Shown here: in pieces, positions 12,964-51,129 of the stretch
Position numbering within the stretch: position 1 is the stretch's first letter
Layout of the letters: the number at the start of each line of letters is the position of its first letter
Origin: Deinococcales bacterium
GTDB taxonomy: Bacteria > Deinococcota > Deinococci > Deinococcales > JAAFIG01
Reading direction: 5' to 3'
DNA length: 64,000 bases
NCBI GenBank assembly: GCA_031414595.1
Contig: JANNVX010000041.1
Coordinates: 96,001 to 160,000 of the forward strand
Notes under the pieces: model-generated
Database searches by the model: none
Seen by the model: the letters and a program-made list of their open reading frames with translations, nothing else
What the model was told of the DNA's origin: nothing
Position numbers and translations under genes: made by a program

Positions 12964-13070
12964 GGGCAAGGCTTCTTGCCCATAAACGCGCACCTAACGG
13001 GCATGGTCGCATGCCTTGCCCCTACGGTTTAGAACAGCTTTTACCGTAGGGGTGAGGCATGCCTCACCCT
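12964..13070. repeat. Inverted doublet of GTAG-type REP elements; the left copy carries a conserved insert
   Basis: GGGCAAGGC[insert]ATGCCTTGCCCCTACGGT, a 14-bp spacer, then ACCGTAGGGGTGAGGCATGCCTCACCCT. Confidence 0.85.
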
Positions 13071-13147
13071 TTGCGGTCAATGATGATTCATTCCCAAATC
13101 GGGAAATTGATTTTAGATAAATCATAAACCTTCCTTTTTCCCTAGCA

Positions 13148-13930
13148 TCATGCTAGTACCTCATTTGGAATATCTTCGACTTTCATTGCCCCTGTCATAA
13201 TCGCAACCGTGTCGGACATGCTGATTTTCTTGGGATTAACCACGGCGGCGCGTTTACCAAGGCGTTGGACATGAATTCGGTCGGCGATTTCAAAAACGTG
13301 TGGCATGTTGTGGCTAATGATAATCACAGGTAAACCACTTTCACGCACTCGGCGGATTAAATCGAGTACCATATTGCCTTCTTTGACCCCTAAAGCGGCA
13401 GTTGGTTCGTCCATAATCACCACATGGCGGGCAAAGGCAGCACTGCGAGCCACAGCCACACCTTGACGCTGCCCACCAGATAAGGTCTCGACCGCTTGGC
13501 TCATGCTGCGAATACCTATTTTTAAGCCAGCCATGTGATTGGTGGCTTCTTCTAACATTTTTTTGTGGTCAATCACCCGAAAGAGTTTTGCTAAGAAGCC
13601 CGGGCGCAGAATTTCGCGTCCTAAAAATAAGTTCTCGGCTATCGTCATGGCGGGGGCAACCGCTAGGTCTTGATAAACCGTTTCGATGCCGTGCTGCCGT
13701 GCATCTATTGGGCTACGGAATTTGACGGGTTTACCATCGAGCATTATCTCGCCAGAATCGGGAATGGTTGCGCCAGACAGGGCTTTAATTAAACTGCTTT
13801 TGCCCGCGCCATTATCACCAATCACAGCCAGGATTTCACCGGCTCGCAGTAAAAAATCTGTGCCATCCAAGGCGGTCACTTGTCCGTAACGTTTGACCAG
13901 ATTTTTAGCTTCAAAAATCGTCTCTGTCAT
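13148..13930 (-). CDS. frcA: Sugar ABC transporter ATP-binding protein (FrcA-like, single ABC domain)
   Basis: GDNGAGKS, LSGGQRQ, MDEPTAAL, ISHN; GAGGTG RBS before ATG 13930. Confidence 0.85.
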   Translation of the reverse strand: MTETIFEAKNLVKRYGQVTALDGTDFLLRAGEILAVIGDNGAGKSSLIKALSGATIPDSGEIMLDGKPVKFRSPIDARQHGIETVYQDLAVAPAMTIAENLFLGREILRPGFLAKLFRVIDHKKMLEEATNHMAGLKIGIRSMSQAVETLSGGQRQGVAVARSAAFARHVVIMDEPTAALGVKEGNMVLDLIRRVRESGLPVIIISHNMPHVFEIADRIHVQRLGKRAAVVNPKKISMSDTVAIMTGAMKVEDIPNEVLA

Positions 13931-13932
13931 AC

Positions 13933-14931
13933 TCACCTCGAGTTCTTGCCTTTTGAAAGTTGGTCTACCGCCACAGCCACAATCACCAGTACACCAGTAA
14001 TCAGAATTTGTACCTCGGAACGTGCGCCCATCAGGGTTAAGCCACTGCGAAAAACCCCACTGATTAACGCCCCAACAATTGTACCAATCAGTAAACCGCG
14101 CCCACCGAACAGGCTTGTGCCGCCAAGTACCACTGCCGTTATCGAGTCTAAATTCTCGGTCTGTCCTGCGTTGGGGTTGCCAATGCCGTATCTCGAGACC
14201 GATAACCAACCCGCAATGCCGTAAATCAGTCCAGCCAAGGTATAAACCATCAGTAAGACCCGTTGGGTTGGAATGCCAGTCAAACGAGCCGCTTCTGGGT
14301 TGTTGCCAACCGCGTACAAGTGTCTACCGGGGGCGGTGTTACTTAAAGCCCATGAAATAGCAGTGAATAAAAAAAGTGTTAAGGCAATGCCCGTGCCGTA
14401 GCCAATGGTGATACCACCAATTGCAATATCTTGTTTGAACCACAATAAAATCGAAGATTCATCACTGACCGTAATGGTTTGGGCTTGGGTGTAAATTTGG
14501 GTGATCGCAAAAGCGATATTCAGTGTGCCAAGCGTGACAATAAACGGTGGAAGTTTTAAGGTTGTGACCAGTAAGCCATTCAAGAAACCAAAGCCAGTGC
14601 TGACGGTTAAGCCAATCAGTAAACTAACAGGGGCTGGCAAACCAAAATCGGCGGCGAGTTTGGTCATTAACATTGTACTGAGCGCCATCACCATACCGCA
14701 AGATAAATCAATCCCACCGGTTAGAATAATCAGGGTTTGTCCAATTGCCAGCACCGCCACAACCATGACCTGCGAGATGATTAAAGCGCCATTATTGGGG
14801 GTGAGAAAATTAGGATGTTGGGTTGCGAAAAATCCAATCGATAAGAACAGTGCCAAAATTGGACCAAGTACCGAAATACTCGGTAGTTTCTCGAGCCAAT
14901 TGTTTTTATTTTGTGTGCCTTGGTTTGTCAT
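13933..14931 (-). CDS. frcC: Sugar ABC transporter permease (FrcC-like)
   Basis: GGIDLS, PPFIVTLG, GNNPEAARLTGI, AVVLGGTSLFGG. Confidence 0.85.
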   Translation of the reverse strand: MTNQGTQNKNNWLEKLPSISVLGPILALFLSIGFFATQHPNFLTPNNGALIISQVMVVAVLAIGQTLIILTGGIDLSCGMVMALSTMLMTKLAADFGLPAPVSLLIGLTVSTGFGFLNGLLVTTLKLPPFIVTLGTLNIAFAITQIYTQAQTITVSDESSILLWFKQDIAIGGITIGYGTGIALTLFLFTAISWALSNTAPGRHLYAVGNNPEAARLTGIPTQRVLLMVYTLAGLIYGIAGWLSVSRYGIGNPNAGQTENLDSITAVVLGGTSLFGGRGLLIGTIVGALISGVFRSGLTLMGARSEVQILITGVLVIVAVAVDQLSKGKNSR

Positions 14932-14993
14932 ATTCACCCTGACTTTACTCTTTTTGGAGTGATTGAATCGCACTCGATGCTCGAGTGATTGAG

Positions 14994-15019
14994 AAGAGGG
15001 CGCGAATTTGCGCCCTCTT
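14994..15019 (-). terminator. Intercistronic hairpin between the binding-protein and permease genes
   Basis: AAGAGGGCGC-6nt-GCGCCCTCTT. Confidence 0.6.
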
Positions 15020-15127
15020 TTGTGCTTGGAGGAGTGGGAAACCCGTCACCCCTCGAGACGGATTTCCCAGATATGAAGTCGTTTTCCTCGAGCCTCATAG
15101 CCCATAGCTCAAGACTCAAAGCTCTTC

Positions 15128-16117
15128 TTAGTTGCCCCAGCAGTTGGCAAGTCCGAATGCGACATTCTTGCTACCAATACCGACCAAAGCACGCTTGGCA
15201 ATTAAGGTCACGCCAGTGTCCACATAGCCCTTGGCTTTGACACCAGTCTTGGCGTATTTGACACCCGCAGCCACACCCAAAGCAGCCATTTTCAGTGGGT
15301 ATTGTTGGCTGGTTGCCACAATCACGTTCTTGTCTACGTTACGAACGCCTTCACAGCCACCGTCTACGCTAAAAATAGCGGCGGTTTTCTTGGCAGCTTT
15401 AAGGGCTTGGAATGCACCTGCGGCGGCTGGTTCGTTGATCGTGTAAACCACGTTAATGTCTGGGTTTTTCTGCAAGCAGTTTTCCATGGCGGTTTGACCT
15501 TTGGCTTGGTCGCCGAAGGTATCTTGGCTGCATACAACTTGGGCAGTGGTGGCAAGGTCTGCTGTGTCTGCGTCTATGTTATCTGCGCCTAAACCAGCCA
15601 AAAAGCCGTTGTGACGAGCAATCCCAACTGGATGACCAGGGAAAAGGTCGAGCATCGCAATTTTAAGGGTTTTGCCTTTGAGTTGGGCGGCGGCGTATTC
15701 ACCAATCAGAACGCCAGCCTTAAAGTTGTCGGTAGCATAGAGTGCGTCTACGGCATCGGCTGGTTCGGTTGGGCTGTCAAGCGCAATCACTTGAACACCA
15801 GCCGCTTGGGCTTTTTTGATGGCTGGAACGATTGCCTTAGAATCTGATGGGGTAATCAGAATAGTTTGTGCGCCAGCCGCTACAAAGTTCTCAATCGCAG
15901 CCACTTGCCCAGCGTTGTCACCGTCTTGCTTACCGGCAGCACTTAAGAATTTTGCACCCAAACGAGCCGCTTCTTTTGAAGCACCTTCTTTCATTTTGAC
16001 AAAAAACGGGTTGGATTCGGTTTTGGTGATTAAACCAATGATTGGTGACTTGCCTTGGGCAAGTGCCAATGCCAAGGTGCTTACGCCAAGGGCAGCTAAC
16101 AGAGCAATTTTACGCAT
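15128..16117 (-). CDS. frcB: Sugar ABC transporter substrate-binding protein (FrcB-like, fructose/ribose/mannose type)
   Basis: Signal peptide; LITKTESNPFFVKMKEGA; INEPAAAGA; SVDGGC; ATSQQYP. Confidence 0.85.
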   Translation of the reverse strand: MRKIALLAALGVSTLALALAQGKSPIIGLITKTESNPFFVKMKEGASKEAARLGAKFLSAAGKQDGDNAGQVAAIENFVAAGAQTILITPSDSKAIVPAIKKAQAAGVQVIALDSPTEPADAVDALYATDNFKAGVLIGEYAAAQLKGKTLKIAMLDLFPGHPVGIARHNGFLAGLGADNIDADTADLATTAQVVCSQDTFGDQAKGQTAMENCLQKNPDINVVYTINEPAAAGAFQALKAAKKTAAIFSVDGGCEGVRNVDKNVIVATSQQYPLKMAALGVAAGVKYAKTGVKAKGYVDTGVTLIAKRALVGIGSKNVAFGLANCWGN

Positions 16118-16193
16118 GGTGGTTCTCCTATTTTGAAAGAGGGCGAATGACCGAAAATCTGACGGATAATTGAACGCCTAAATTACTCGTTCG

Positions 16194-17213
16194 TTAAGAA
16201 AGCACTTGGATGGGCGGTGGAGCGGTGCTAAAGCGTTGAATAAAGTTGGTGGCTAAACGAATCTGAATCGGTTTTTGGGTTCTGCCACGCTCGAGTCGGT
16301 CAAGTAAGGTTTCGCAGGCAAGGTAAGCCAATTCGTAAGCTGGTTGGGCGACCACGGTAATACTGGGTTGTAAGAGTTTTGCCCAACGTGAATCGTCAAA
16401 ACCAACAATGCTTAGGTCGGCAGGGATAACCAGTCCTAAATCTCTGGCGGCAAAAATTGCCCCAATCGTCATTTCGTTGTTTCCGACAAACAGGGCGGTT
16501 GGGCGTTCACCTTCGGGTCTCGAGAGCAGATTATGGGTAGCTAAGCGTCCACCGTCTTCACGATGATTGCCAGTTTGTACGAGGTCGTCACGGTACGTGA
16601 TACCCGCTTCGGCGAGGGCTTCTTTATACCCAGTATGGCGCTCGACGGCGGTAGATATATCAAGGCTACCTGCAATCATGCCAATCCGTTTGTGTCCAAG
16701 GCTGGTCAGGTGTTGCACGGCGGTTCTCGAGCCGCCAATGTTATCTACCATGATTGTGTGTGCGCCTTTCAGTCCACTGGCACGGTCAAGTTCGATAACT
16801 GGCAAGTTGCCAATTAAACCTAAGTTTTCTTGTGCGCCAGCCGTTGGCATGATAATTAAACCTTGTGGCATGTGGCTGCGTAGACTCTCTAGGGCTTTGC
16901 GTTCTTTATCCGAGTCTTCGTCGGTGTTAAACATAAAGACGGTATAATCGCGTTTGGCAGCCGCATCTTGAACCCCTTTGGCGAGCATCGCGTTACCGGG
17001 GTTCAGCACATCGGAGATGATTAGACCAATGCTCTGGCTTTGTCCGCGCCGCAGCGCACTGGCTAACTGATTGGGCTGGTAGCCAAGTTGATTGGCAATC
17101 TCGAGAACCCGTTCGCGGGTTTTGGTGTTGACCAAATCCGGACGGGTAAACGCCCTCGAGACGGTGGCTCGAGAAACTTGGGCGAGATTGGCTACTTGGT
17201 CTACATCAATCAT
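16194..17213 (-). CDS. LacI family transcriptional regulator
   Basis: VANLAQVSRATVSR, YQPNQLASAL, DLSIVGFDD. Confidence 0.95.
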   Translation of the reverse strand: MIDVDQVANLAQVSRATVSRAFTRPDLVNTKTRERVLEIANQLGYQPNQLASALRRGQSQSIGLIISDVLNPGNAMLAKGVQDAAAKRDYTVFMFNTDEDSDKERKALESLRSHMPQGLIIMPTAGAQENLGLIGNLPVIELDRASGLKGAHTIMVDNIGGSRTAVQHLTSLGHKRIGMIAGSLDISTAVERHTGYKEALAEAGITYRDDLVQTGNHREDGGRLATHNLLSRPEGERPTALFVGNNEMTIGAIFAARDLGLVIPADLSIVGFDDSRWAKLLQPSITVVAQPAYELAYLACETLLDRLERGRTQKPIQIRLATNFIQRFSTAPPPIQVLS

Positions 17214-17226
17214 TATGGTGTCCTTT

Positions 17227-17355
17227 TGCAATCGAATGCAGTTATCTCGAGGCGAAAAGTAGACATAGAAGGCTTTTTTTGCCTAAATTTATACTTTTTC
17301 GACTTTGTATTGCAATCGTTTGCAAAGTATACGCAGTTTGCAAGACGGTTTGCAA
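17227..17355. promoter_or_regulatory. Cluster of LacI-type operators
   Basis: TGCAATCGAATGCA (17227-17240), TTGCAATCGTTTGCAA (17310-17325) and TTGCAAGACGGTTTGCAA (17338-17355); CG-centred palindromes upstream of lacI. Confidence 0.7.
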
Positions 17356-17431
17356 GTATCTTGGAATACATAAGGTTAAGGACACAAACCCAAAGAACTC
17401 GTAGTCTCGAGAAACACGCTAGAATCAGACC

Positions 17432-19036
17432 ATGCACCTATTATCAACCAATCCTTACGCCAGTCACCGTCACTCGAGTTACGGCACATATGGCGCGGTT
17501 GCCACCAGCCAAGCGCTGGCGGCTCAGGCTGGGCTGCAAATACTGCGGGCTGGAGGAAACGCGGTAGATGCGGCGATTGCCACTGCCGCTTGCCTAACGG
17601 TGGTTGAACCCACCAGCAATGGTATCGGCGGCGATGCCTTTGCCCTTGTTTGGGATGGCACAAAACTGCATGGTTTGAACGCTTCGGGACGCTCTCCACA
17701 GAATCTTTCAAAAACACTGCTCGAGGGGCAAGGACACAGCACCATGCCACAACAAGGCTGGCTCAGTGTGACTGTACCAGGAGTACCCGCCGCTTGGCGA
17801 GATTTACACCAGAAATTTGGACGCTTACCGTTTGAAGAACTGCTCGAGCCAGCTATTTTCTATGCCGAGCATGGGTTTGTGGTTTCAAGTACCGTCGCCA
17901 GATTCTGGGCGTATGCTGCCCAAAAATATGCACTGCTCGAGGGGCAAGAATTTAAGCCTTGGCTCGATACCTTTACAAGAGATTCACGTAGCCCACAAGC
18001 GGGTGAAAAGTTCTTAATGCCAGACCATGCCAGAACTTTGCGCCGAATCGCCCAAACTTACAGCCAAGATTTTTATACAGGCAGCCTCGCCCAACAAATC
18101 GAAGATTTTGCAGCCCAGACTGGCGGGGTCATCACCCAAGCCGATTTACGCGCCCACAGCAACACTTGGGTTGACCCAATCGGCACCAATTATCGGGGCT
18201 ATGATGTTTGGGAAATCCCACCCAACGGACAAGGGATTGCCACTTTAAGCGCCCTCAATATCCTTGAAGGTTTTGATTTGTCGCGTCTGGCTCGAGACAG
18301 CGTGGAAAGTTATCATTTACAACTCGAAGCCATGAAACTCGGGTTTTCCGATGCCTTAGCCTATGTTGCCGACCCGACTCGAGTGAGTGTCCCTACGGCT
18401 GGGCTGCTGGATAAAGCCTATGCTGCCGAGCGCCGAGCCCTGATTGGTGAAATGGCATTGCTGCCTAGCCCCGGACAACCACCCAAAGGCGGCACGGTCT
18501 ACTTATGCACTGCCGATTCAGACGGGATGATGGTCAGTTATATCCAAAGTAATTACGCTGGTTTTGGCAGTGGGATTGTGATTCCAAATACGGGTATTGC
18601 CCTGCAAAACCGAGGCGCAAATTTTAATCTCGAGACCAACCACCCAAACTGTTTTGAACCAAATAAACGCCCCTACCACACGATTATTCCAGCTTTTCTA
18701 AGTAAAGATAACCAAGCCATCGGCGCTTTTGGGGTGATGGGCGGATTTATGCAGCCGCAAGGACACCTGCAAATGATTGTCAACACCATAGATTACAACT
18801 TGCATCCACAAGCAGCCCTAGACGCACCACGTTGGCAATGGACGGAACAAAAAAACATTGAACTCGAGATGCAGACCCCACAACATCTTGCCCAAGCACT
18901 ACGCGCCAAAGGACATAATGTACACCTTCAACTCGAGAGTGGCAGTTTTGGACGCGGACAGATTGTTTGGAAAATTGGCGATGCCCTGATAGCAGGGACA
19001 GAATCCAGATGTGACGGTGCAGCCTTGGTGTACTGA
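17432..19036 (+). CDS. ggt: Gamma-glutamyltransferase family (Ntn hydrolase)
   Basis: GGNAVDAA, PPNGQG, GGTVY nucleophile Thr, KRPYHTIIP, GVMGG. Confidence 0.93.
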   Translation: MHLLSTNPYASHRHSSYGTYGAVATSQALAAQAGLQILRAGGNAVDAAIATAACLTVVEPTSNGIGGDAFALVWDGTKLHGLNASGRSPQNLSKTLLEGQGHSTMPQQGWLSVTVPGVPAAWRDLHQKFGRLPFEELLEPAIFYAEHGFVVSSTVARFWAYAAQKYALLEGQEFKPWLDTFTRDSRSPQAGEKFLMPDHARTLRRIAQTYSQDFYTGSLAQQIEDFAAQTGGVITQADLRAHSNTWVDPIGTNYRGYDVWEIPPNGQGIATLSALNILEGFDLSRLARDSVESYHLQLEAMKLGFSDALAYVADPTRVSVPTAGLLDKAYAAERRALIGEMALLPSPGQPPKGGTVYLCTADSDGMMVSYIQSNYAGFGSGIVIPNTGIALQNRGANFNLETNHPNCFEPNKRPYHTIIPAFLSKDNQAIGAFGVMGGFMQPQGHLQMIVNTIDYNLHPQAALDAPRWQWTEQKNIELEMQTPQHLAQALRAKGHNVHLQLESGSFGRGQIVWKIGDALIAGTESRCDGAALVY

Positions 19037-19037
19037 T

Positions 19038-20360
19038 TTACTTCCTAAATTTTAGGGCATTGACTTTAGCCCCAATGCAACGCCCTTGCTCGAGACCCTG
19101 TTCAATGGCGGCTCGGAAATGAATTCCACCATACAGCCTCGAGATGCCAGCTTCGTTAGCCGCTTCGGTAAACGACTTATAACTGCGTGGCTCGAGTCCG
19201 TTATCTGAACCTGTGCGGTCGGTGAAAGCATATTTCTCGCCAAAAAAAGTGGTCAGGACACTGGCGGCGGCACTGCTTTGGGTGCTGTGACCACTCGGGT
19301 ATTCTGGGAATGGTGGAATCAGCAAAATGGTTTCAAAGGTCGAGTCTATGTGCCGACGAATATAGGTACTGGGACGCAATAAATTGTAAATATACTTGGT
19401 GTGCCAGCAACCAATAAAGGCATCATTGACCGCCAGTCCAACGCGGGCTTGGAGTTCGGCAAACTGCTCTAAGCCAAGGTTTTTATCAAGCGCCAGATTT
19501 AGGGCAATGCTAATCCAATGTCCGGGCGGGGTGATGGTTAGCATCGGGTCGTCAGACCAAAATCGGGCAATTTTCTTCTGCTCAGGACTGATATTTTTGA
19601 CGGTGTTGTAAACTTCTAATGCCTCTTTATAGAACGCCGAATCTTTTTCGCTCGAGTAGGTGGGAGGGGCTGGGAGGGGGCAGTCATTACCAGTTTTCAT
19701 GACCAATGGGCGGTTATTACCCCAAGCTGGCAAAAGTGGGGTTTGCTGCATCCCAAGGGCTGCGGTTGGGACCCATTGTTCTGGCTTGGTGGCTTTAGGA
19801 TAAGTGAGCGGGAAACCCAAGTTGCTGATGGTTGCCCCACCGTCTGTTTTGGCAAACTCGAGGATTTGTTGGGCTGCCAAACGCCCATAATTCAGGCTGC
19901 GCTCGAGAACATCTTGAGGCATAGATTTTGCCAAATCTTGGGCAATACGGTTTTTAACAATTGTCAGCACCCGTTGCCCGGTCGGACCAGTATTGCCGTA
20001 CAAAGCCTCCATACTGCTCGAGAATGCCCCGTGCAGAACAGCCGCGTTGTTGTACTTTTGTTTTGGGTCTGGTTTGGTAATCCCGCGAAATCCTTGAACT
20101 TGCCCCTCGAGTGAACGCAGGGTTTTACTGTTTACAGCAACCAATTCGTGCATCGTTAAACCGACATAAGCAAAGGTACGGGCAGCCACTGGTGGCGAGT
20201 AAGTCGCAGTGTGACGGGTTAAATCAAGCATCAGGGTGTACCATTGGGTTGCCACACGCATCTCGAGCGGCAAACTGGGGGTGTTATTCTGAGCGCCAGA
20301 ATGACCTAAGAAAGCCAAACTCGAGCCAAACAGCACAAGAAGTGCAAACTTTGTTTTCAT
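19038..20360 (-). CDS. Secreted vanadium-dependent haloperoxidase / PAP2-like protein
   Basis: K....LLRP, PPFPEYPSGH and SRLYGGIHF vanadate-binding motifs; signal peptide. Confidence 0.88.
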   Translation of the reverse strand: MKTKFALLVLFGSSLAFLGHSGAQNNTPSLPLEMRVATQWYTLMLDLTRHTATYSPPVAARTFAYVGLTMHELVAVNSKTLRSLEGQVQGFRGITKPDPKQKYNNAAVLHGAFSSSMEALYGNTGPTGQRVLTIVKNRIAQDLAKSMPQDVLERSLNYGRLAAQQILEFAKTDGGATISNLGFPLTYPKATKPEQWVPTAALGMQQTPLLPAWGNNRPLVMKTGNDCPLPAPPTYSSEKDSAFYKEALEVYNTVKNISPEQKKIARFWSDDPMLTITPPGHWISIALNLALDKNLGLEQFAELQARVGLAVNDAFIGCWHTKYIYNLLRPSTYIRRHIDSTFETILLIPPFPEYPSGHSTQSSAAASVLTTFFGEKYAFTDRTGSDNGLEPRSYKSFTEAANEAGISRLYGGIHFRAAIEQGLEQGRCIGAKVNALKFRK

Positions 20361-20385
20361 GTATTTTTTGTACCATAAATTACAC

Positions 20386-21201
20386 TTAATTTGATGTTGA
20401 TTTTTGAAGTAGTATCGCCAGATGTCGCACCCAGATTTTCTCCCAGAGGGCTGGGCTTTGCGGTAACTCGAGCTTAAAAACTTGGAGCAGTACATCGTTG
20501 TAGTCAGCTAGACCCTCTAAGGTGCGTTCGGTTTTGCCTGATTTACTCAGCGTTGTTAGCACCGCCCCACGCAGCGTGTACAAGGCTTCTCGAGTCATGC
20601 GCTGGCAAACGGTGGTACGGACAAAACCACTTTCTGGATTGGTTTGTAAGTCGGTGCAGCGCTCGGCAAAGTAATCTAAAGTCCTTGGCTCGAGGCTAAA
20701 AATAAAACCAGCCGTATTACTTTGTGGCGGGTTGTGCATTGTCCAATGAGGTTGTGAATAACCCATGCGGTACTCGAGAAAACCTGTTTGGTATGTGCCT
20801 TCTTGTAAAGGCAGCGCTTCTATTGCCCCATCGCCAAAGCCAACATCAGCTAAGTATGTTCCTTCTTCGAGTTTGACCAGTAAAATCATGTGGTCGCCAT
20901 CTGGTGTTTGTCCGTTGGGGCGCAGTACACCACTTGATAAACACTGCACCTCAAAGCCTATTTCGCGTAGCACCCATGCAAAAAGCGTGTTCATTTCAAA
21001 GCACCAACCGCCACGCTGCTCGAGAACAATTTTTTGGTAGGCTTGGGCTAATCCTAGTGGCAGTTTGCGTCCTAAGTGAATGTCCAGATTCTCGTAGGGG
21101 ATGGTGTTTAGGTGCGCTTCTTGGAGGGCATTGAGTACCGCCAGCGTGGGTTCTCGTGCGCCGTGGTACTCAATCCGTTGTAAGTAAGTCTCGAGTTGCA
21201 T
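20386..21201 (-). CDS. Arylamine N-acetyltransferase
   Basis: IPYENLD, RGGWCFE (Cys), DHM (His), ADVGFG (Asp). Confidence 0.93.
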   Translation of the reverse strand: MQLETYLQRIEYHGAREPTLAVLNALQEAHLNTIPYENLDIHLGRKLPLGLAQAYQKIVLEQRGGWCFEMNTLFAWVLREIGFEVQCLSSGVLRPNGQTPDGDHMILLVKLEEGTYLADVGFGDGAIEALPLQEGTYQTGFLEYRMGYSQPHWTMHNPPQSNTAGFIFSLEPRTLDYFAERCTDLQTNPESGFVRTTVCQRMTREALYTLRGAVLTTLSKSGKTERTLEGLADYNDVLLQVFKLELPQSPALWEKIWVRHLAILLQKSTSN

Positions 21202-21297
21202 GGTCTGTATTCTAAACAAAAGTTCTTCTGGCATTGCTAAGAATAAATTACTTCCTTTTGGGACACATGACAGCCCAATGCTTGTTACGATTTTTTC

Positions 21298-25458: not shown

Positions 25459-25485
25459 GTAGGGGCGAACCCCTGTGTTCGCCCT
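25459..25485 (+). repeat. GTAG-type REP element
   Basis: GTAGGGGCGAAC-CCCTGT-GTTCGCCCT. Confidence 0.8.
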
Positions 25486-39254: not shown

Positions 39255-39256
39255 AC

Positions 39257-42089: not shown

Positions 42090-42641
42090 TCATCTTTTTA
42101 GTAGCTCGAGAAAATTTGGCGGTACAGCATCGGCTAACCAAACACCGTTTTCTGAGCAGTAAAACGAATACCCCATTTTGTGCATCTCGAGGGCATGAAC
42201 TTTAAGAAGGATGGCTTTCCCATGCCGATTACCTACTTTAAGCGCGGTTTGCGTATCAATGGATAAATGCACATGATGGCGTTTCATTTTATCTAAGCCA
42301 GTCTCGAGAATTGCGGTTAAAGACTGCTCCGTTGTACCGTGGAACAAAAATTCTGGCGGCTCGAGAGAAATTAAATCAAGCTCCACAGTCACGCTATGAC
42401 CTTGACTGGCACGAATGTTTTGTTTGGTTTCATCAAAAGCAAAGCGCTGTTTATCGTTTTTTAATACCACTTCCTCAAGTTCGGCTCGAGATAGGCTAAA
42501 TCCTTTACGATTAAAGGCTTCTAGCAGCGCATCCACCGATACCCAACCACTGAGTGATAATTGCAAGCCAAGTCTTTGAGGGTTATGACGCAGGGCTTTA
42601 GACATGGTTTTACTGATTTGTACAAGACGATTATTTTCCAT
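42090..42641 (-). CDS. kptA: RNA 2'-phosphotransferase (KptA/Tpt1)
   Basis: SK..S..LRH, KQRF, IRASQGHS, FHGT, RHHVHLS, NGVWL; start codon uncertain. Confidence 0.93.
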   Translation of the reverse strand: MENNRLVQISKTMSKALRHNPQRLGLQLSLSGWVSVDALLEAFNRKGFSLSRAELEEVVLKNDKQRFAFDETKQNIRASQGHSVTVELDLISLEPPEFLFHGTTEQSLTAILETGLDKMKRHHVHLSIDTQTALKVGNRHGKAILLKVHALEMHKMGYSFYCSENGVWLADAVPPNFLELLKR

Positions 42642-42741
42642 CTGTTTATTTTGGTGCTTCTCGAGCCAAATAGCCACAGTGTTCTGGCTTAAGCGCAAAG
42701 ACCGATACCAAACCTGCATAATTGTACTAGACTCGAGTCTC

Positions 42742-43740
42742 ATGTCCATCGAACTCTTGGTTTTAGGTCAATCTGGCAACGACAACGCCGCTTTGGTGCG
42801 AATTGATACAGGGCAGGCGATTCACCGTTTACTCTTTGACTGCGGACAAGATGTTCTAAACTCTCTCGAGTACAACGAAATTTTGTCAATAGACCATCTG
42901 TTCTTCTCGCATTTGCACATGGATCATATTGCGGGTTTCGATGCGCTTTTTCGTGGCTTGTACGCCCGTACCCATAAACCCAATTCAATTTGGGGTCCAG
43001 ACCAAACGGCTCGGATTTTACAGCACCGTTTTTGTGGCACACTCTGGAATTTGCATGAGGGCATGAACGCCACATGGTTGGTGCATGACATTCTTGAGGA
43101 GCAGATTCGTACCTACCGATATGAATTAGCCGATGCCTTTGAAAATGCCTATTTAGAACCCAAAAAACCACGTTCCAAATATATTCTCGAGCATCCAGAT
43201 TACAGTGTAGAAGTGATTATTCTTGACCACCGCACCCCAAGTCTTGCCTATGTGGTACGAGAAAAAGACCGAATCAATCTCGAGCCAGAAAAACTCAAAG
43301 CCCTTGGTTTAGAAGCTGGTGCATGGGTACGAGACCTCAAAAATTTGGAACTCCAAAAAGAAACATTGAACATTAACGGTAAAATCTATCCACTCGAGGC
43401 GCTACGTTCTGAGCTTTTAACCACGACCAAAGGCGATGCGGTGGCGTACTGCACCGATTTTATTCTTAACCAAGAAACAGCCAAAAAACTCATTCCAGCT
43501 TTACAAGGTGTGCGGTTACTGCTCTGCGAAAGTCAATATTTACACACCGACCTCGAGATGGCAGAGAAAAACTTTCACATGACCAATAAACAAGTGGCAG
43601 AACTGGCAGCTTTGGCAGAGGTGCAGGAGCTACGGCTTTTTCATGTTTCTGACAGGTATTCAGCCCTCGAGCGCCAAATTTTACTCGAGCAAGCCAGAAG
43701 CATTTTTGCCAATGCCCATTATCCGAGTCATTGGGTATAA
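42742..43740 (+). CDS. Ribonuclease Z-like metallo-beta-lactamase
   Basis: LFDCG, SHLHMDH, DH..PS..Y, exosite-like insert, D, HMT, H.S.RY. Confidence 0.85.
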   Translation: MSIELLVLGQSGNDNAALVRIDTGQAIHRLLFDCGQDVLNSLEYNEILSIDHLFFSHLHMDHIAGFDALFRGLYARTHKPNSIWGPDQTARILQHRFCGTLWNLHEGMNATWLVHDILEEQIRTYRYELADAFENAYLEPKKPRSKYILEHPDYSVEVIILDHRTPSLAYVVREKDRINLEPEKLKALGLEAGAWVRDLKNLELQKETLNINGKIYPLEALRSELLTTTKGDAVAYCTDFILNQETAKKLIPALQGVRLLLCESQYLHTDLEMAEKNFHMTNKQVAELAALAEVQELRLFHVSDRYSALERQILLEQARSIFANAHYPSHWV

Positions 43741-43789
43741 ATGTCTGGGTATGAGTGACGCTCATCAAATACTTGAGTAAACTAGGGGC

Positions 43790-44851: not shown

Positions 44852-44924
44852 AATAGTCTAACTCGGTCTTTTAAGCACGGGTTAAAAGTTTTGACGTGTA
44901 CTTAGAAGGGTTATTTACTTTCAC

Positions 44925-46241
44925 CTAGCCCTTAAACCGCCCCATCAGTTGTTGCAAGCCACGTCCTTTGCTGCCGCGCATCAGTTTCATCATGTCTTTC
45001 ATTTGGTCATACATTTTGACCAAACGGTTCAGTTCCTGCACCGTGTTACCGCTTCCTACCGCGATGCGTTTTCGGCGTTGCCCGTCTATCAGTTTGGGAT
45101 TACGGCGTTCTTTTAAGGTCATGCTTTGAATCATGGCTTCGATGCGCTTAAATTGTTTTTCGTCTACGTTTAAGTCATTAGGCAGCATTCGGCTCATACC
45201 GGGAATCATTTTCACTAAGTCGCCAATCGGACCCATTTTCTGAATACTTTTTAACTGCTCGAGTAGGTCTTCAAAGTCAAATTCATTGGGTTTTTTCGGC
45301 GCAAAGGACTGAATATCGGCTTGTTGGGCGCGTTCAATCAGGGTCAGGACATCGCCCATACCAAGGATTCGTTGGGCAACCCGCTCTGGGTAAAATGGCT
45401 CGAGTCCGCCGATTTTTTCAGACACACCCGCAAACATAATCGGTTTACCTGTCACGCTTCTTGCCGATAATGCCGCGCCGCCACGAGCATCACCATCGAG
45501 TTTGGTCATGATTAAACCCGAAACACCAATTCGCGCATCGAAAGCCGATGAAACATTCAATGCCTCTTGTCCGGTCATGGCATCCACGACTAAAAAGGTT
45601 TCCGATGGGCTTAACTGGGTTTTTAAGTCTGCTAGCGCGTCCATTAGCCCTTCGTCTATTTGCAAACGCCCGGCGGTGTCCACAATCACCAAATCATGGA
45701 AATTGGTTCTTAGGTATTCTTCCAGTCTGGCTTTGGTGCTGCTGGGTGATTCGTTGTCTTGCACCTCGAGAACTGGTACACCGACCTGTTGCCCTAAGAC
45801 CTTGAGTTGGTCTCGAGCCGCAGGGCGTTGCGTGTCGGCTGCCACCAGTAGGGGTCTGCGACCTTTAGATTTATAAAATGAAGCCAATTTACCGGTAGTG
45901 GTAGTCTTACCCGCACCTTGTAAACCGACCATAAACCAGACGTTGCCTTCGGTTTTTAAGAGTGGCTGGCTGGCATCGCCGCCGAGCATTTCTCTAAGTT
46001 CGTCATAGACAATTTTAATCACTTGCTGACCGGGCGTTAGGCTGGTCAGGACTTCTTGCCCAACGGCTTTTTCTTGGACTCGAGCCACAAAGTCTTTGGC
46101 AACCGTAAAATTGACATCGGCTTCGAGCAGTGCCACACGAACTTCACGCAGGGCGGTTTTGACATCCGCATCGGTCAGTTTGCCGCGTTGACGCAATTTA
46201 TCAAAAATATCTTGGAGTTTATTTCCTAGGGTTTCAAACAT
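44925..46241 (-). CDS. ffh: Signal recognition particle protein
   Basis: [26 protein letters not shown] domain. Confidence 0.98.
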
Positions 46242-46290
46242 ACGCTATTGTATAGGCAAACGGCGCAAGAAAAAAGCCAAAACTGATTAA

Positions 46291-46355
46291 ACCGTAGGGG
46301 CGAGGCTTCTTGATTCTAAACGCGCACCTGTCGGGCAGAATCGCATGCCTCGCCC
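46291..46355 (+). repeat. GTAG-type REP with the conserved structured insert
   Basis: ACCGTAGGGGCGAGGC-TTCTT-GATTCT-AAACGCGCACCTGTCGGGC-AGAATC-GCATGCCTCGCCC. Confidence 0.85.
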
Positions 46356-46395
46356 GCTAACGCAATCCATTTTGGTTTATTGCCATAGTCATTTT

Positions 46396-47295
46396 TCAAT
46401 CTGATTCTGACAATACCTGCAACCAAAGCGGGTATTCGGCTCGAGTTGTGCCGTTTCTAAAACGATCTAGGTGCTTGTTGCCGTACTCCATAAAGTCAAA
46501 TTCAAGGCTCGAGATACCACTTTGTAAATACCCCCAAAAGGCTTCTCGAGCATCGGACACAAGGCGCATCAGTTGAACTTGGGCAAGCAAAATAGGGGTT
46601 ATTTGCCCGTAATAAAGGCTAATCAGGTTTTGCAGTTCAATTTCGTTTAACTCGAGGTTCGCCGCCAAGTTACCAAGGTCAAAAGCGCAGTTGCTATTGC
46701 CAGCGTATTCCCAATCCACAATCCAAAGCTGGTTGGTGACTAAAATATTGGCGGGTAATAAATCGTTATGGCACGGCACAATAACCGCATGAGGCTCGAG
46801 AATGGCTTTTATGTGTTGTAACTGCTCGAGAATTTGGGTCGTATCTTTTGGAAATTTGACGTGGTGTTCAAGCGCTAATTGATGGTAATTTCGGATGGTT
46901 TCAAAGGCGCTAAAAGATTTAGGGAAGGCTGGGGCAGCATGAATTTTTTTCAGGGCGTTCAGGATTGCTTCAAGCTGCATTTTGGCTCTGGGGATGGTCA
47001 GTGTTTCGGCATTCTCGAGATAGCGGGTAAAAAGCGCCCCATGAATTTGCAGGTACGCCACGGGCTGAGCGCCGATGCCAACCGAGTAAGCGGTGCTACT
47101 GCATTCAAATTCGCATTTGCGGTCTATCCCCAAAAGCTCGGTGCGTTCGCCCGGAACACGCAGCATATATGTGCCAGATGCGGCTTCTAGTTTGTAATTG
47201 CGGTTGGTGATGCCACCGGGGATGGCTTCTAGGCTAAGGATTTTGCCCACCAGCAATTGCACATCCTTGGTTAGTTCTCGGGTCAATTGGTTCAC
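46396..47295 (-). CDS. Choline/ethanolamine kinase-like phosphotransferase
   Basis: GGITN.NY, CHNDLL..N, DWEYA, FDL. Confidence 0.88.
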   Translation of the reverse strand: MNQLTRELTKDVQLLVGKILSLEAIPGGITNRNYKLEAASGTYMLRVPGERTELLGIDRKCEFECSSTAYSVGIGAQPVAYLQIHGALFTRYLENAETLTIPRAKMQLEAILNALKKIHAAPAFPKSFSAFETIRNYHQLALEHHVKFPKDTTQILEQLQHIKAILEPHAVIVPCHNDLLPANILVTNQLWIVDWEYAGNSNCAFDLGNLAANLELNEIELQNLISLYYGQITPILLAQVQLMRLVSDAREAFWGYLQSGISSLEFDFMEYGNKHLDRFRNGTTRAEYPLWLQVLSESD

Positions 47296-47328
47296 AGTGT
47301 CTGGTAGTTTAGCCTGTTATGCTTATTC

Positions 47329-48696
47329 ATGCTCAAAATTTTAGATACAGCACAATCTTGGGATGTGATTGTTCTTGGTGGTGGCACGGCTGGGGCAATT
47401 GCCGCCATCAAAGCGGCTCGAGCCGGGGCTAAAACACTGGTGGTCGAAGCCCTAGGAAGCCTAGGCGGAACGGGAACAAATGCCCAAGTGACCCCCTTAA
47501 TGCGAAATATCTCGAGTGGCATTAACCTCAATCAAGGTTTAACCAACGAGCTTAAGACGCGGCTTTTTGCCCAAGGTGATGGTGCGACCGATATGCACAA
47601 TAATGACAACTGGTTTAACCCCGAAGGCATGAAATATGTTCTCGAGCGAATGCTGGTCGAGTCCGGTGGGGATATTTTGTACCACACCCATTTTGTGTCC
47701 CCTGAACTCGAGCAAGAGCGGGTGACGAGTGTGGTTGTGCATAACAAAGATGGTTTGGTGCGCTTAAAAGCCAAAGCCTTTATAGATGCGACTGGCGATG
47801 CCGACTTGAGTGTTCGGGCAGGAGCGCCTTTTCAAGCTGGCGAAGCCGAAACGGGTTTACATCAAGCCATGAGTCTGCGCTTTATTCTGGGCGGGGTTGA
47901 CCGCCAAAAACTTTGCGGGTTTTTAGCTAGGCACGGACAAGTTCAAGAATCCGAGCAGTTTATGCACTTTTGGATGGTTTGGGGCAAAAACGCCAGTCTT
48001 GAACCAATTTTCAAAAAAGCCGTCGAACAAGGTGTTCTCGAGGAACGTGACGGCGATTACTTTCAGGGTTTTAGTATCCCCGGAATGCCCAACTGTATCT
48101 CTTTTAATAATCCGCGTTTAGCCGAAGACATCAATGATGGCGCAGATGCTTGGACACTTTCCAGAGCGCAAATAGATGGCAAGCACGCGATTAACCGCCT
48201 TGTTAAATTCTTACGCAACACCTTTGAAGGTTGCGAGAACAGTTTTGTCTCGAGTTACGCTGCTATCCCCGGAGTACGCGAAACCAGACGAATCGAAGGT
48301 GAATACATGCTGACCTTAGACGACATTCTCGAGTGCCGCACCTTTGAAGACGCAATTTGCCGCAACCATTACCCTGTAGACATTCACACCCCACGCGGAC
48401 AAAAGCTCTACCACGAACGTTCTGGCGACCTACCGTACTTCAAACCTGATGCCTTCCATGAAATCCCCTATCGTAGCCTGATACCGCTTGGACTCGAGAA
48501 TGTGCTTGTCCCCGGACGTTGTGCCAGTGCCACCTTTGAAGCTCAGAGCGCCATCCGAGTTCAACAGAACTGCCACAGCATGGGCGAAGCGGCTGGACTG
48601 GCGGCAGCATGGATGGCAGAACAGAACTTAACTTCAAGGCAAGTCAACGCCCTCGAGTTACGGGCAGCCCTGAAAGCCGACGGAGCGTATTTATGA
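47329..48696 (+). CDS. FAD-dependent oxidoreductase
   Basis: DVIVLGGGTAG, IDATGDAD, GVRETRRI.G, IPYRSL. Confidence 0.9.
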   Translation: MLKILDTAQSWDVIVLGGGTAGAIAAIKAARAGAKTLVVEALGSLGGTGTNAQVTPLMRNISSGINLNQGLTNELKTRLFAQGDGATDMHNNDNWFNPEGMKYVLERMLVESGGDILYHTHFVSPELEQERVTSVVVHNKDGLVRLKAKAFIDATGDADLSVRAGAPFQAGEAETGLHQAMSLRFILGGVDRQKLCGFLARHGQVQESEQFMHFWMVWGKNASLEPIFKKAVEQGVLEERDGDYFQGFSIPGMPNCISFNNPRLAEDINDGADAWTLSRAQIDGKHAINRLVKFLRNTFEGCENSFVSSYAAIPGVRETRRIEGEYMLTLDDILECRTFEDAICRNHYPVDIHTPRGQKLYHERSGDLPYFKPDAFHEIPYRSLIPLGLENVLVPGRCASATFEAQSAIRVQQNCHSMGEAAGLAAAWMAEQNLTSRQVNALELRAALKADGAYL

Positions 48697-48710
48697 GCAA
48701 CGAGCAAATC

Positions 48711-48795
48711 AGGGCGAACACAAGGTTCGCCCCTACGGTTGGACACGACTTATTTTGCAATTTAATCGTTAGGGGCAGACCTCTGTGTCTGCCCT
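48711..48795. repeat. Inverted doublet of REP elements
   Basis: AGGGCGAACACAAGGTTCGCCCCTACGGT ... TAGGGGCAGACCTCTGTGTCTGCCCT. Confidence 0.8.
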
Positions 48796-48832
48796 GTAAG
48801 AAAACTTTTTTTAATATTCTCTTTAGGAATCC

Positions 48833-49588
48833 ATGCCTCTGCTCATTGACCTAAACGCCGATGCTGGTGAATCCTACGGAACTTGGACGCTTGGACAGGA
48901 TGCGGCGCTTTTTGGGTTTCTCTCGAGTGTCAACATCGCTTGTGGGTTTCATGCTGGCGACCCAAAGATGATATTGCAGACCCTCGAGTTGGCAGAGCAG
49001 CATGGTTTAGCGATTGGCGCACATCCGGGCTTTCCAGATTTAATTGGTTTTGGCAGACGCGAAATGAACCTTGAAGCCAATCAGATTTATGCCGATGTGC
49101 TGTATCAGATTGCGGCACTCGAGGGCATGACACAGGCTCAGGGTTTAAGGCTGCACCATGTCAAAGCCCACGGCGCACTGTACAACCAAGCCGCCCGAAA
49201 TCTAAGCACCGCCAAAGCCATTGCTAAAGCCGTCCATGATTTTGACTCGAGTTTGCCATTTGTTGGACTGCCCAATTCAAAACTCGAGGAAGCTGCCACC
49301 GAATACGGCTTGCGATTCATCCCAGAAGCCTTTCCAGAACGCGGCTATGTGGATTCTGGGCAACTTGCACCACGCAGTATCAATGGCTCAAGTATTCACG
49401 ACCCAGAACTGGCGGCGGCTCGAGCCGTACAGATGGCAAGGGGTTGGATTGAAACACTTGAAGGGCATATCCTCGAGATTGCGCCACAAACCTTGTGTAT
49501 TCACGGCGATAACCCCAATGCTGTCGAGATTGCCAAGGCAGTCCGCCAAGCACTCGAGCAAGCAGGGTTTCAGGTTCGGGCTTATTGA
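48833..49588 (+). CDS. pxpA: 5-oxoprolinase subunit A (LamB/YcsF)
   Basis: DLNAD.GE, NIACGFHAGD, GAHPG..D..GFGRR, KAHGALYN, CIHGD. Confidence 0.95.
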   Translation: MPLLIDLNADAGESYGTWTLGQDAALFGFLSSVNIACGFHAGDPKMILQTLELAEQHGLAIGAHPGFPDLIGFGRREMNLEANQIYADVLYQIAALEGMTQAQGLRLHHVKAHGALYNQAARNLSTAKAIAKAVHDFDSSLPFVGLPNSKLEEAATEYGLRFIPEAFPERGYVDSGQLAPRSINGSSIHDPELAAARAVQMARGWIETLEGHILEIAPQTLCIHGDNPNAVEIAKAVRQALEQAGFQVRAY

Positions 49589-51129
49589 TGCGTTTAGGTC
49601 TTTACATTCCTTTTGCGGGTAAACCCGATGTGGCTGCCTCATCTCGAGCCTTAAATGCTGTTAAAGCCATGCGTGAACATCTGCTTGAGGGTATTACTGA
49701 TATTATTCCAAGTTATTTGAATCTTTATTTTGAATTTGATACTCGAGTGACCACCAAAAAAGCTGTGCAGGATTGGGCATTGTCTTTTCTAAACCGTAGG
49801 GGTGGGGCTGTCTTGACCCTAAACACGCACCTGGCGGGCAGGGTCGCTTGCCTCGCCCAACCTAGCCAGTCCATAGAAATTCCAGTCCAGTACAACGGTC
49901 TTGACCTCGAGTTTATCGCCAAAAAAACAGGGTTGACCATCCCAGACATTATCCAAACCCACTCGAGCCATGTCTACCACGCTTTTGCCGTTGGTTTTAC
50001 GCCTGGTTTTCCGTTTCTTGGTGTGTTACCGCCCCCTTTGCATTTGCCGCGTCGAGAAAACCCTCGAGCAAGAGTAGAGGCACATTCGGTGGGGATTGCC
50101 ATGGCGCAAACCGGTGTTTATCCGTTCTCGAGTCCGGGCGGTTGGCATCTGCTCGGTACTTCTGGTGTAGCAATGTTTGACCCGCACCGAGAACCGCCAT
50201 TCTGGGTGCAAGCGGGTGATGCCGTGCGTTTTGTGCCAGTCCAACAAGTACAAATCCCGACCCTCGAGTCAGTATCGTTGTTGCCACTCGAGCCAAAATT
50301 CCCAGTCTTAAAACTCGAGCAGGCGGGTTTGCAGACCTTGTTGCTCGATGCTGGGCGGGTACAGGTCGGTCATCTTGGTTTGGCGCAGTCGGGGGTACTT
50401 GACGCTAGAAGTGCGGCTCGAGCAAATGCCGTTGTGGGCAACGCAGCAGACGCGCCACTGCTCGAGCTAACCCTGCTTGGTGGGGTATTTACGGCACTGC
50501 GTGATGTGGTGCTTGGCTTTGCGGGGTACGGTATGAATCCAATTTTGAATGGTGAAATAATACCCGCCGCCTCGAGTTTTTTATTGCGCCGTGGACAAAC
50601 CCTGTCTTTTAAGCCGAGCAGTACGGGGGTGCGTGGTTATTTGAGTGTCGCGGGTGGTTTTGAGGGCGTACCGATGTGGAATAGTATCAGTTCAGATGCT
50701 CGGGCGAGTTTGGGGCGAGCTTTACAAGCGGGGGATGTGCTTGGGGCAAGGTTGCTTAAATCCGTCCGAGCAGGTTTTTACCTATCACAACCGAGTCTCG
50801 AGCCTAGGGCTTTTCGACTTCTTCAAGGGGCGCAAGCCAATCCCGAGGCTTTTGTAGCCCTGACCAGTGCCAATTTTACGGTTGAAGGCGGCGACCGGAT
50901 GGGTTTGCGTTTATCGGGGGCGTTGCTGGGTGGCGGTGATGTTCCCAGTGAAGCTACCCCGCTTGGTGCGGTACAAATCACATCTGGTGGGCAACCGATT
51001 ATTTTGCTGCATGACCGTGGGCGGATGGGCGGCTACACCAAGCCAGCCGTGGTGCATCCAGCCGATTTATGGCGCTTAGCGCAACTGCGAGATGGTCAGG
51101 GTTTGCGATTCTCGAGATTTTTGCACTGA
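49588..51129 (+). CDS. pxpBC: Fused 5-oxoprolinase subunits B and C (CT_C_D + CT_A_B)
   Basis: IPSY, IEIPV.Y, GFTPGF, SPGGW.L.G; then D.GR, R.G.RL, GAVQ, GGY. Confidence 0.88.
   Translation: MRLGLYIPFAGKPDVAASSRALNAVKAMREHLLEGITDIIPSYLNLYFEFDTRVTTKKAVQDWALSFLNRRGGAVLTLNTHLAGRVACLAQPSQSIEIPVQYNGLDLEFIAKKTGLTIPDIIQTHSSHVYHAFAVGFTPGFPFLGVLPPPLHLPRRENPRARVEAHSVGIAMAQTGVYPFSSPGGWHLLGTSGVAMFDPHREPPFWVQAGDAVRFVPVQQVQIPTLESVSLLPLEPKFPVLKLEQAGLQTLLLDAGRVQVGHLGLAQSGVLDARSAARANAVVGNAADAPLLELTLLGGVFTALRDVVLGFAGYGMNPILNGEIIPAASSFLLRRGQTLSFKPSSTGVRGYLSVAGGFEGVPMWNSISSDARASLGRALQAGDVLGARLLKSVRAGFYLSQPSLEPRAFRLLQGAQANPEAFVALTSANFTVEGGDRMGLRLSGALLGGGDVPSEATPLGAVQITSGGQPIILLHDRGRMGGYTKPAVVHPADLWRLAQLRDGQGLRFSRFLH
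49793..49858 (+). repeat. REP element with structured insert lying in frame inside pxpBC
   Basis: ACCGTAGGGGTGGGGC-TGTCTT-GACCCT-AAACACGCACCTGGCGGGC-AGGGTC-GCTTGCCTCGCCC, 66 bp, homologous to the copies at 46291 and 12964. Confidence 0.8.

Follow-up and report, generated by a model that had tools for sequence, protein, structure and literature searches.

The stretch of DNA considered here (hereafter the window) comprises 64,000 nucleotides from a Deinococcales bacterium (contig JANNVX010000041.1 of assembly GCA_031414595.1, positions 96,001 to 160,000). It encodes DdrB together with an IrrE-like protein, has a GC content of about 47-50%, and contains seven repetitive extragenic palindrome (REP) hairpins, four of type A and three of types B and C. 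Three of the four type-A hairpins, but none of the three type-B/C hairpins, are interrupted by a further small hairpin, here termed the unit, which is the subject of this study. An earlier note on this DNA, made from the sequence alone, had described these three REPs as split at GGC^ATGCC by an insert of about 38 bp (throughout, the caret marks a point of insertion or cleavage), and all three were found to be as described, the insert measuring 38-39 nt. The insert lies on the plus strand in every one of the window copies, with the GTAG end of the host REP at its 3' side in copy 1 and at its 5' side in copies 2 and 3. A motif scan flagged six of the seven window REPs; the host of copy 3, which has two arm mismatches, was the one not flagged. 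The copies and their hosts are the following:

12964-13028, host REP of copy 1, an inverted type A with GTAG on the minus strand.
12973-13010, plus strand, unit copy 1 (38 nt), stem GCCCAT/ATGGTC with one mismatch, NN = AA; 59.8 bits with the covariance model, E = 1.2e-12.
46291-46355, host REP of copy 2, a direct type A.
46307-46344, plus strand, unit copy 2 (38 nt), stem GATTCT/AGAATC, NN = GT; 60.2 bits with the covariance model.
49793-49858, host REP of copy 3, type-A-like with its two arm mismatches.
49809-49847, plus strand, unit copy 3 (39 nt with a leading T), stem GACCCT/AGGGTC, NN = GG; 63.3 bits.

Copy 1 reads GGGCAAGGC, then the unit TTCTT GCCCAT AAACGCGCACCT AA CGGGC ATGGTC GC, then ATGCCTTGCCCCTACGG; copy 2 reads CCGTAGGGGCGAGGC, then TTCTT GATTCT ...GT... 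AGAATC GC, then ATGCCTCGCCC; and copy 3 reads CCGTAGGGGTGGGGC, then TGTCTT GACCCT ...GG... AGGGTC GC, then TTGCCTCGCCC. From 5' to 3', the unit comprises T(G)TCTTG, the first arm of a covarying 6-bp stem, a loop of the form AAAC-R-CGCACC^T-NN-CGGGC, the second arm and a final GC, 38-39 nt in all. The loop motif AAACRCGCACCTNNCGGGC occurs three times in the window against 0.35 expected, a count reached in none of 100 shuffles, and the covariance model, which was built from 47 distinct units, finds the three window copies only (E about 1e-12 to 1e-13, the next match having E = 0.33). Copy 2 is situated between ffh (44925-46241, minus strand) and a choline-kinase-like gene (46396-47295, minus strand).

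The wider family was collected in one scan of species-representative genomes with the pattern TAAACNCGCACCTNNCGGGCA, and all counts obtained from it are lower bounds. The scan yielded at least 97 loci (designated here by L numbers), at least 82 of them from 10 metagenome-assembled genomes (MAGs) of the Deinococcales/Deinococcota, which by a hand count among the matches listed hold 22, 17, 17, 10, 6, 5, 2, 1, 1 and 1 loci. Another 15 loci listed from other phyla are without the flanking TCTTG and TCGC, and by our own estimate this is about the number of matches to be expected for an 18-base pattern in 596 Gb. At least 89 of the 104 scorable pattern matches listed are family members, whereas the covariance model gives at least 111 matches in the 82 loci, about 24 of which are divergent copies, and the listed copies occupy 37-42 distinct flank contexts. 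No match to the unit was obtained in plasmid or phage collections. The window itself is 92-96% identical to one unit-bearing MAG over 1.6 kb, and this match, together with its DdrB and IrrE-like genes, marks its host as a low-GC relative of Deinococcus that is uncultured. Several contigs (L023, L048, L086, L091, L014, L087 and L010) end in or beside unit-bearing repeats, which suggests that such repeats break MAG assemblies. The shared strand of the insert, to which the earlier note had drawn attention, holds for the three window copies but does not generalize; since multi-copy contigs carry units on both strands, the orientation of the window copies is most likely a coincidence. A replication-strand rule was rejected on the same grounds, and the GC skew of the window is flat.

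The covariation of the stem, which the earlier note had proposed from three copies, is real. Across the 47 distinct units, 96.5% of the stem cells are paired and three of the six pairs change on both sides (21 cells); the covariation score is reached in none of 500 shuffles, and slid controls fall to 24-55% pairing. The note had also asked beforehand that pairing be preserved in further copies, and perfectly paired stems are indeed present in 82 of the 89 listed copies, in five arm variants: GACCAT/ATGGTC (63 copies), GACCCT/AGGGTC (12), GATTCT/AGAATC (5), GACTCT/AGAGTC (1) and GACTAT/ATAGTC (1), with at least one mismatch in the other 7. The approximately 24 divergent copies add the arm pairs GATTCC/GGAATC, GACCAC/GTGGTC, GATCCC/GGGATC and GGTTTC/GAAACC. 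These copies retain TCTTG, GCACCT-N(1-2)-CGGGC and the terminal CGC, while the A-rich 5' part of the loop varies. A possible inner helix of 2 bp in the loop (GC/GC) is invariant. The idea that the loop dinucleotide NN acts as a guide was rejected, as type-A sites carry NN = AA, GT, TA and GA alike with no tracking of the target flank.

Sequences that are unrelated to one another have received the unit on many occasions, and its 3' end in them is sharp. The unit occurs in REPs of types A, B and C, whose arms are unrelated, pointing either way with respect to GTAG; the REP loops at these sites are AT for type A, CTTGT for type B, and CCCCGT or CCCTGT for type C. It is also found in itself. Tandem dimers spaced at exactly 38 nt occur in L015, L044, L084 and L092, and units are nested within older units at CACC^TNNCGGGC, up to three deep, in L004, L012, L013, L014, L032, L061, L092 and L093, the halves of such stacks being ordered L1 L2 L3 NN R3 R2 R1. 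A circular permutation, with a mobile piece delimited at both ends by nicks in the loop, was considered and set aside, because it accounts for the dimers and leaves the order of the halves in REPs unexplained. One further unit interrupts a CCTTTTAA repeat tract, and other repeat families contain several more. A composite repeat of the form ACTCCCCCTCGC-unit-TCGCTCGACCCCTCAAAGAGGGG, with an inverted partner approximately 50-100 nt downstream, was observed at 11 loci (L008, L009, L024, L039-L041, L049, L052, L073, L077 and L096) and evidently spreads as a block.

Two loci place the unit in genes of other kinds. In L032 (529-639, minus strand), a 37-nt unit occupies the anticodon loop of a tRNA gene within the cluster Tyr, Asn, the interrupted gene, Arg-gcg, Arg-tct, Pro and Ala. 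The interrupted gene is missed by ARAGORN as it stands, is called as tRNA-Arg(tcg) after in silico removal of the 37 nt, and is called as tRNA-Arg with a 37-nt intron when introns are allowed; the Rfam tRNA model spans it at 48.4 bits, and the insertion point that fits a canonical CTTCGAA loop lies after position 33-35. An identity as a tRNA intron, either of group I or of the bulge-helix-bulge type expected at position 37/38, is not supported, as 37 nt is far too short for a group I core and no Rfam intron match was obtained. The same locus has a tRNA-like 3' fragment (1034-1091) adjoining another nested unit pair. In L043 (~600-1500, minus strand), an IS605-like tnpA is followed by tnpB, and the tnpA carries two units of 36 and 38 nt, both in the sense direction, plus an in-frame TGA; the first of these units sits in the loop of a 5-bp hairpin, GTATC...GATAC. 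Among the three options that the earlier note had offered, a passenger targeting REP centres is the one best favoured by these data, but the REP centre proves too narrow a description, as the unit's own loop, a tRNA, tnpA and open reading frames (ORFs) are targets as well. The targets are hairpin loops and C^T-like sites in general.

Copies of the unit that survive in coding sequence keep the reading frame. Copy 3, as the earlier note had missed, lies in frame within a fused pxpB-pxpC ORF (KipI-KipA-like, TTHA0988-type; 49585-51129, plus strand), where REP plus unit amount to 66 nt, or 22 codons, and about 18 residues are absent at the insert position in the Thermus structure 3oep. In an alignment of 14 homologues, eight are without REP-like sequence at the site and one has a short REP-like NRRVEVYLDQ, whereas the window protein combines the REP-like segment with 13 more residues. 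In a homologue that shares 81% identity with it over the 200 N-terminal residues used as query, the site holds 13 other residues whose best match is the reverse translation of the unit, and a third homologue has a further 13 residues nested in the reverse-read 13, the orientations of both inserts being taken from protein sequence only. The second case is L074 (737-1408, minus strand), which encodes a widespread protein of ~200 residues with no precomputed Pfam domain and 2340 relatives at E<=1e-10 (homologues P0057-P0064). Here the unit is read antisense and adds exactly 13 residues between an invariant KKNDFEQ and GW. Eight of 10 aligned homologues lack the 13-residue insert, including one that is 90% identical, while one at 70% identity carries almost the same insert there; recurrent insertions at the same position suggest targeting rather than chance. 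Another homologue in this family has a 12-residue insert elsewhere in the protein. Both ORF-borne copies in intact genes are 39 nt long and contain no stops, one of them sense (pxpB-pxpC) and the other antisense (L074), which suggests that they are translated rather than removed. Frame-keeping inserts of this kind are what selection on translated DNA insertions would yield, whereas a spliced element would have no need of them.

The window also contains plain REPs and an empty counterpart of a site that is filled elsewhere:

10822-10965, minus strand, unit-free copy of a ~130-nt repeat (arms AAGTATCTC..CC / GGCGTGAGATAC), the empty-site reference.
13044-13070, plus strand, plain type-A REP (CCGTAGGGGTGAGGC ATGCCTCACCC), the inverted partner of the REP of copy 1, with its centre GGC^ATGCC unsplit.
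25459-25484, plus strand, plain type-C REP (GTAG GGGCGAACCC ct GTGTTCGCCC), a type that bears the unit in other genomes.
48712-48736, minus strand, plain type-B REP (GTAG GGGCGAAC cttgt GTTCGCCC), a type that bears a single or tandem-dimer unit in other genomes.
48768-48794, plus strand, plain type-C-like REP with GTTAG (GGGCAGAC ctctgt GTCTGCCC).

The ~130-nt repeat is filled after ..CGCC in L010, L014 and L067, and in L084 it carries a divergent unit at another site, after CAATTCTG.

The structure of the targets was assessed by deleting the unit in silico, folding 70 nt as DNA and locating the insertion point, for 37 flank-context clusters. The insertion point falls in the apical loop of the minimum-free-energy hairpin at 22 of the 37 sites, compared with 421 of 1500 random positions in the same loci, and within 3 nt of a hairpin loop at 26 of the 37, compared with 734 of 1500. 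Junctions were analyzed in 39 non-tandem contexts. The left junction is readable as T after a target C in 38 of these, allowing a T/G-rich lead of 1-4 nt before CTTG. On the right, the base following the unit's final C is T in 22/39 (background 0.22), CT follows one base later in 6/39, and A follows in 5/39. By eye, N-T-G stands directly 3' of the insertion in 14/39 contexts. There is no fixed target word among the 5' flanks, which end in GGC, ACC, CCC, GAC, CGC, ATC and others. The two boundaries differ in character, as the 5' boundary is variable (T, TG, C, TC or TT before TCTTG), whereas the 3' boundary is sharp.

Based upon these features, we consider it probable, at roughly 0.6, that the unit is a non-autonomous mobile DNA hairpin of 38-39 nt that is moved as a single strand and aimed at hairpin loops by an enzyme whose existence we infer. 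The unit would travel as single-stranded DNA, and a cleave-and-join enzyme of the HUH/Y1 type, encoded elsewhere in the genome, would recognize the folded hairpin, the 5' pentanucleotide and the loop. Such an enzyme could be a relative of the REP-associated TnpA (REP-associated tyrosine transposase, RAYT) or of the IS200/IS605 TnpA. It would presumably cleave at a C^T to either side of the hairpin, after which the piece would be joined into a C^T, or sometimes a C^A, that is exposed in a single-stranded loop. The covarying stem would accordingly reflect selection for foldability at each transposition and not a cellular RNA function.

A number of observations weigh against this proposal. The insertion point lies outside the predicted hairpin loop at 15 of the 37 sites and is not within 3 nt of one at 11, although some of these misses are tandem neighbours or REP arms clipped by the fixed boundaries, and the recurrent genic site of L074 has no predicted hairpin. 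At the junctions, the permitted lead of 1-4 nt makes a left C^T easier to meet by chance, 6/39 contexts have a right junction other than C^T or C^A, and microhomology averages 1.64 nt over the 39 contexts against 0.76 +/- 0.15 at random cut points. The covariation rests on few subfamilies and few independent changes. The loop and the closing T-A pair were part of the scan pattern, so that the invariance of the loop among the 89 copies is partly by construction and truly fixed positions are judged from the ~24 divergent copies only; moreover, all of the comparative DNA consists of MAG contigs. As regards the cognate Y1 transposase gene that accompanies REPs in a REPtron, flanked by the repeats, a match to a Y1 transposase family was found in none of the 68 window ORFs scanned and no RAYT was found in the locus flanks, a search that did not extend to whole genomes. 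A tblastn search with pieces of the L043 TnpA returned mostly the translated unit itself, the one other match (L089) being a leuA-like gene. Lastly, the unit has TCTTG and not the GTAG/GTGG that RAYTs need, with TCTT/CTTG preceding the stem in 47 of 47 distinct units. As the unit is not a strict REP in this respect, it would need an enzyme of its own if the single-strand proposal is right.

The main rival is template switching during replication or repair with no dedicated enzyme, whereby a nascent strand stalled at a hairpin would anneal over a few bases to a unit at another locus, or to a short detached copy of one, copy to the template end and return. We regard this as unlikely, though it accounts for several features: junction microhomology is about twice the control (TTCT at tnpA, TC at the tRNA and GC at type-A REPs), and a fuzzy 5' boundary opposite a sharp 3' boundary is what annealed entry and run-off at a template end should produce. 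Relatives of Deinococcus are also known for repair by synthesis-dependent strand annealing, which we count in its favour. However, 16 of the 39 contexts have no junction microhomology at all, the length of the unit is constant over ~40 contexts, and the exact 38-nt dimers together with the repeated CACC^T position in the loop point to a defined cleavage; in addition, we know of no free template molecule. Considerably less probable is an origin of the insert as the fused ends of a larger REP-targeting insertion sequence, produced by internal deletion in the manner of a miniature inverted-repeat transposable element (MITE), with the cargo once located at NN. The nested order of the stacked halves, with the hypervariable NN at the nesting point, is consistent with such an origin, as is the known use of REPs as targets by insertion sequences, going by titles cited in PMC3116915. 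Yet no half pair split by cargo was seen in the 64-kb window and ~126 kb of loci, admittedly a weak test given that the loci reach 1 kb to either side; the supposed inverted repeats are only 6 bp and covary, unlike terminal repeats bound by a transposase; and there is neither a consistent target duplication nor a plasmid or phage match. A variant of the insertion sequence idea, IS91/rolling-circle insertion with CTTG as the target, was rejected because the type-A REP centres are without CTTG.

Another proposal, which we hold to be slightly more doubtful again, would deny the unit any mobility of its own and treat it as a long-loop variant of the REP, carried along whenever the REP-associated transposase moves its REP. 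REPs lengthened by additional stems and large loops have been described (PMC6006769, PMC8266576), and unit-bearing REP doublets do spread as blocks: the ~145-nt doublet containing copy 1 (window 12964-13105) recurs in L028, L035 and L064, and L045 has a unit-bearing doublet as well. The proposal is nevertheless contradicted already by the occurrence of the unit in three REP types with unrelated arms and loops and in both orientations, by its non-REP sites (its own loop, the tRNA, tnpA, the L074 ORF, the CCTTTTAA tract and the ~130-nt repeat), and by the existence of plain-REP and REP-plus-unit homologues at one and the same gene position. The least probable of the alternatives, to which we give very little credence, is that the unit is a structured RNA, whether a small ribozyme, a protein-binding hairpin or a removable intron-like insert, and that its covariation reflects RNA function. 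In support of an RNA, the stem covaries, four of the five genic or tRNA insertions are in the sense direction (the window pxpB-pxpC, the L032 tRNA and L043 tnpA twice), and ARAGORN can be made to call an intron in the L032 gene. Conversely, no Rfam family, self-cleaving classes included, matches the unit, whether in the window at gathering score, in the surroundings of copies 2 and 3 at E<=10 or, tRNAs aside, in 10 loci at E<=1; the earlier note had not placed it in a known family. Orientation is also independent of the neighbouring genes, as 20 copies are sense to both of the nearest long ORFs, 13 are antisense to both and 16 are mixed (9 divergent, 7 convergent), the rest being unassigned. 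Furthermore, the ORF-borne copies are in frame without stops, even where one of them is antisense, and the 38-nt tnpA copy shifts the frame of a gene that already bears a stop codon. The ribozyme or structured-RNA option of the earlier note is therefore not upheld, removal of the unit at the RNA level is an unlikely reason for the tolerance of the tRNA copy, and the evidence favours a DNA insertion module over an RNA motif.

The proposed mobile hairpin bears its closest resemblance to REPs and REPINs. These are likewise short, high-copy single hairpins that have a conserved motif 5' of the foot and compensatory stems and act as single-stranded DNA. According to PMC8266576, the TnpA-REP enzymes of E. 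coli and S. maltophilia cut single-stranded REP DNA at C^T, whereas CT and CA are both cut by an enzyme from Marinomonas, and the strand is then transferred; cleavage occurs 5' or 3' of the hairpin, and the tetranucleotide at the foot assists in the choice of site. The same source gives, as the substrate layout of Y1 transposases, a hairpin whose foot is immediately preceded on the 5' side by a conserved tetra- or pentanucleotide, and the C^T or C^A cut that it reports is compatible with a unit that begins with T, ends with C and enters at C^T. REPs have also been encountered in frame inside genes, and both this and the existence of long-loop REPs are already known from PMC6006769. However, the REPs of that source have a basal stem of 7-20 nt and a loop of 2-5 nt or a second stem, whereas the unit has a 6-bp stem and a 19-nt loop, and the characteristic GTAG tetranucleotide is carried by the host REPs around the unit and not by the unit itself. 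The unit also sits inside REP loops and inside itself, and in the literature searched we found no report of REPs nesting in hairpin loops.

Other small or hairpin-guided elements share some of these properties. The small dispersed repeats (SDRs) of Nostocaceae cyanobacteria are tiny modules located precisely in a palindrome, with no encoded protein and no known mechanism, SDR5 being situated between nucleotides 3 and 4 of the HIP1 sequence GCGATCGC (PMC4390886 and PMC5861425). Because they differ from the unit in phylum, sequence and target, this is a likeness in behaviour and not in membership, as judged via secondary descriptions. The SDRs of Elhai et al. 2008 are reportedly 21-27 nt and hence smaller than the unit. 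Elements of the IS200/IS605 group and the palindrome-associated transposable elements (PATEs) exhibit hairpin-guided single-strand transposition with precise excision and insertion and no target duplication, and an IS605-like tnpA-tnpB element is present in unit-bearing genomes (L043). These elements, however, have different hairpins at their two ends and integrate 3' of a set tetra- or pentanucleotide, whereas the unit has a single hairpin and no fixed word, and by eye the left-end region upstream of the L043 tnpA is unlike the unit (the right end of the element is outside the locus). MITEs differ as well, as the unit has only a 6-bp covarying stem, shows no constant duplication (16/39 contexts share no junction bases) and is accompanied by no parent element that we could find. 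Rickettsia palindromic elements are palindromic, occur in frame in protein genes and in RNA genes, and are tolerated in surface loops, but they measure about 100-150 bp and belong to another phylum; to our knowledge, neither a preference for hairpin loops nor self-nesting has been reported for them. Among insertion sequences, members of the IS3 and IS110 families target REP centres, and they are kilobase-sized autonomous elements with a transposase, in contrast to the 38-nt unit. What they share with it is the REP palindrome as a preferred integration site, going by titles cited in PMC3116915. In the literature searched, neither the sequence of the unit nor any hairpin of 38 nt inserting into REP loops and into copies of itself was described.

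Several further features of the window were recorded. A ParE-family toxin gene (787-1134, plus strand) is followed by a small ORF without a Pfam match (1146-1475); the unit-bearing REP doublet of L045 is located just downstream of the equivalent gene pair and is absent from the window at ~1475-1496. An AAA_21/AAA_15 ATPase gene adjoins a DUF4276 gene (53172-54958, plus strand), an arrangement that we take to resemble the two-gene PARIS anti-phage system. A homologue of the RNA 2'-phosphotransferase Tpt1/KptA is encoded at 42090-42749 (minus strand); this enzyme acts in tRNA splicing in fungi and plants, and it is mentioned only in view of the interrupted tRNA of a related genome. A weak Rfam match to Chlorobi-1 (46536-46623, plus strand; 24.1 bits against a threshold of 50, E = 0.0018) falls in a region that is coding on the opposite strand and is probably due to chance.

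As to its significance, the unit is among the smallest mobile DNA modules seen, and its self-nesting marks a preferred cut inside its own loop. It is conceivable, though we advance this only tentatively, that it represents a minimal class of transposable DNA consisting of a single 38-nt hairpin bounded by C^T cuts, served by its own HUH-type enzyme and aimed at hairpin tips rather than at a sequence. If so, it would be about the smallest self-defined mobile unit known, one that stacks upon itself, hits the same sites again in different lineages, adds 13-residue loops to proteins and interrupts a tRNA anticodon loop. The spread of REP-like elements is poorly understood, and the published biochemistry ends at oligonucleotide cleavage and strand transfer. 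The family described here documents single-hairpin mobility in nature with unusual clarity: its junctions are mapped, its independent targets number in the dozens, and conserved genes offer filled and empty alleles. Should an HUH enzyme be shown to move the unit, it would constitute a minimal substrate for single-strand transposition with a loop-directed target rule, and possibly a compact tool for placing short sequences into DNA hairpins. For the organisms that carry it, the unit exemplifies how tiny repeats remodel the genes of free-living bacteria: proteins gain in-frame inserts of 13 residues at recurrent sites, and RNA genes are altered as well.

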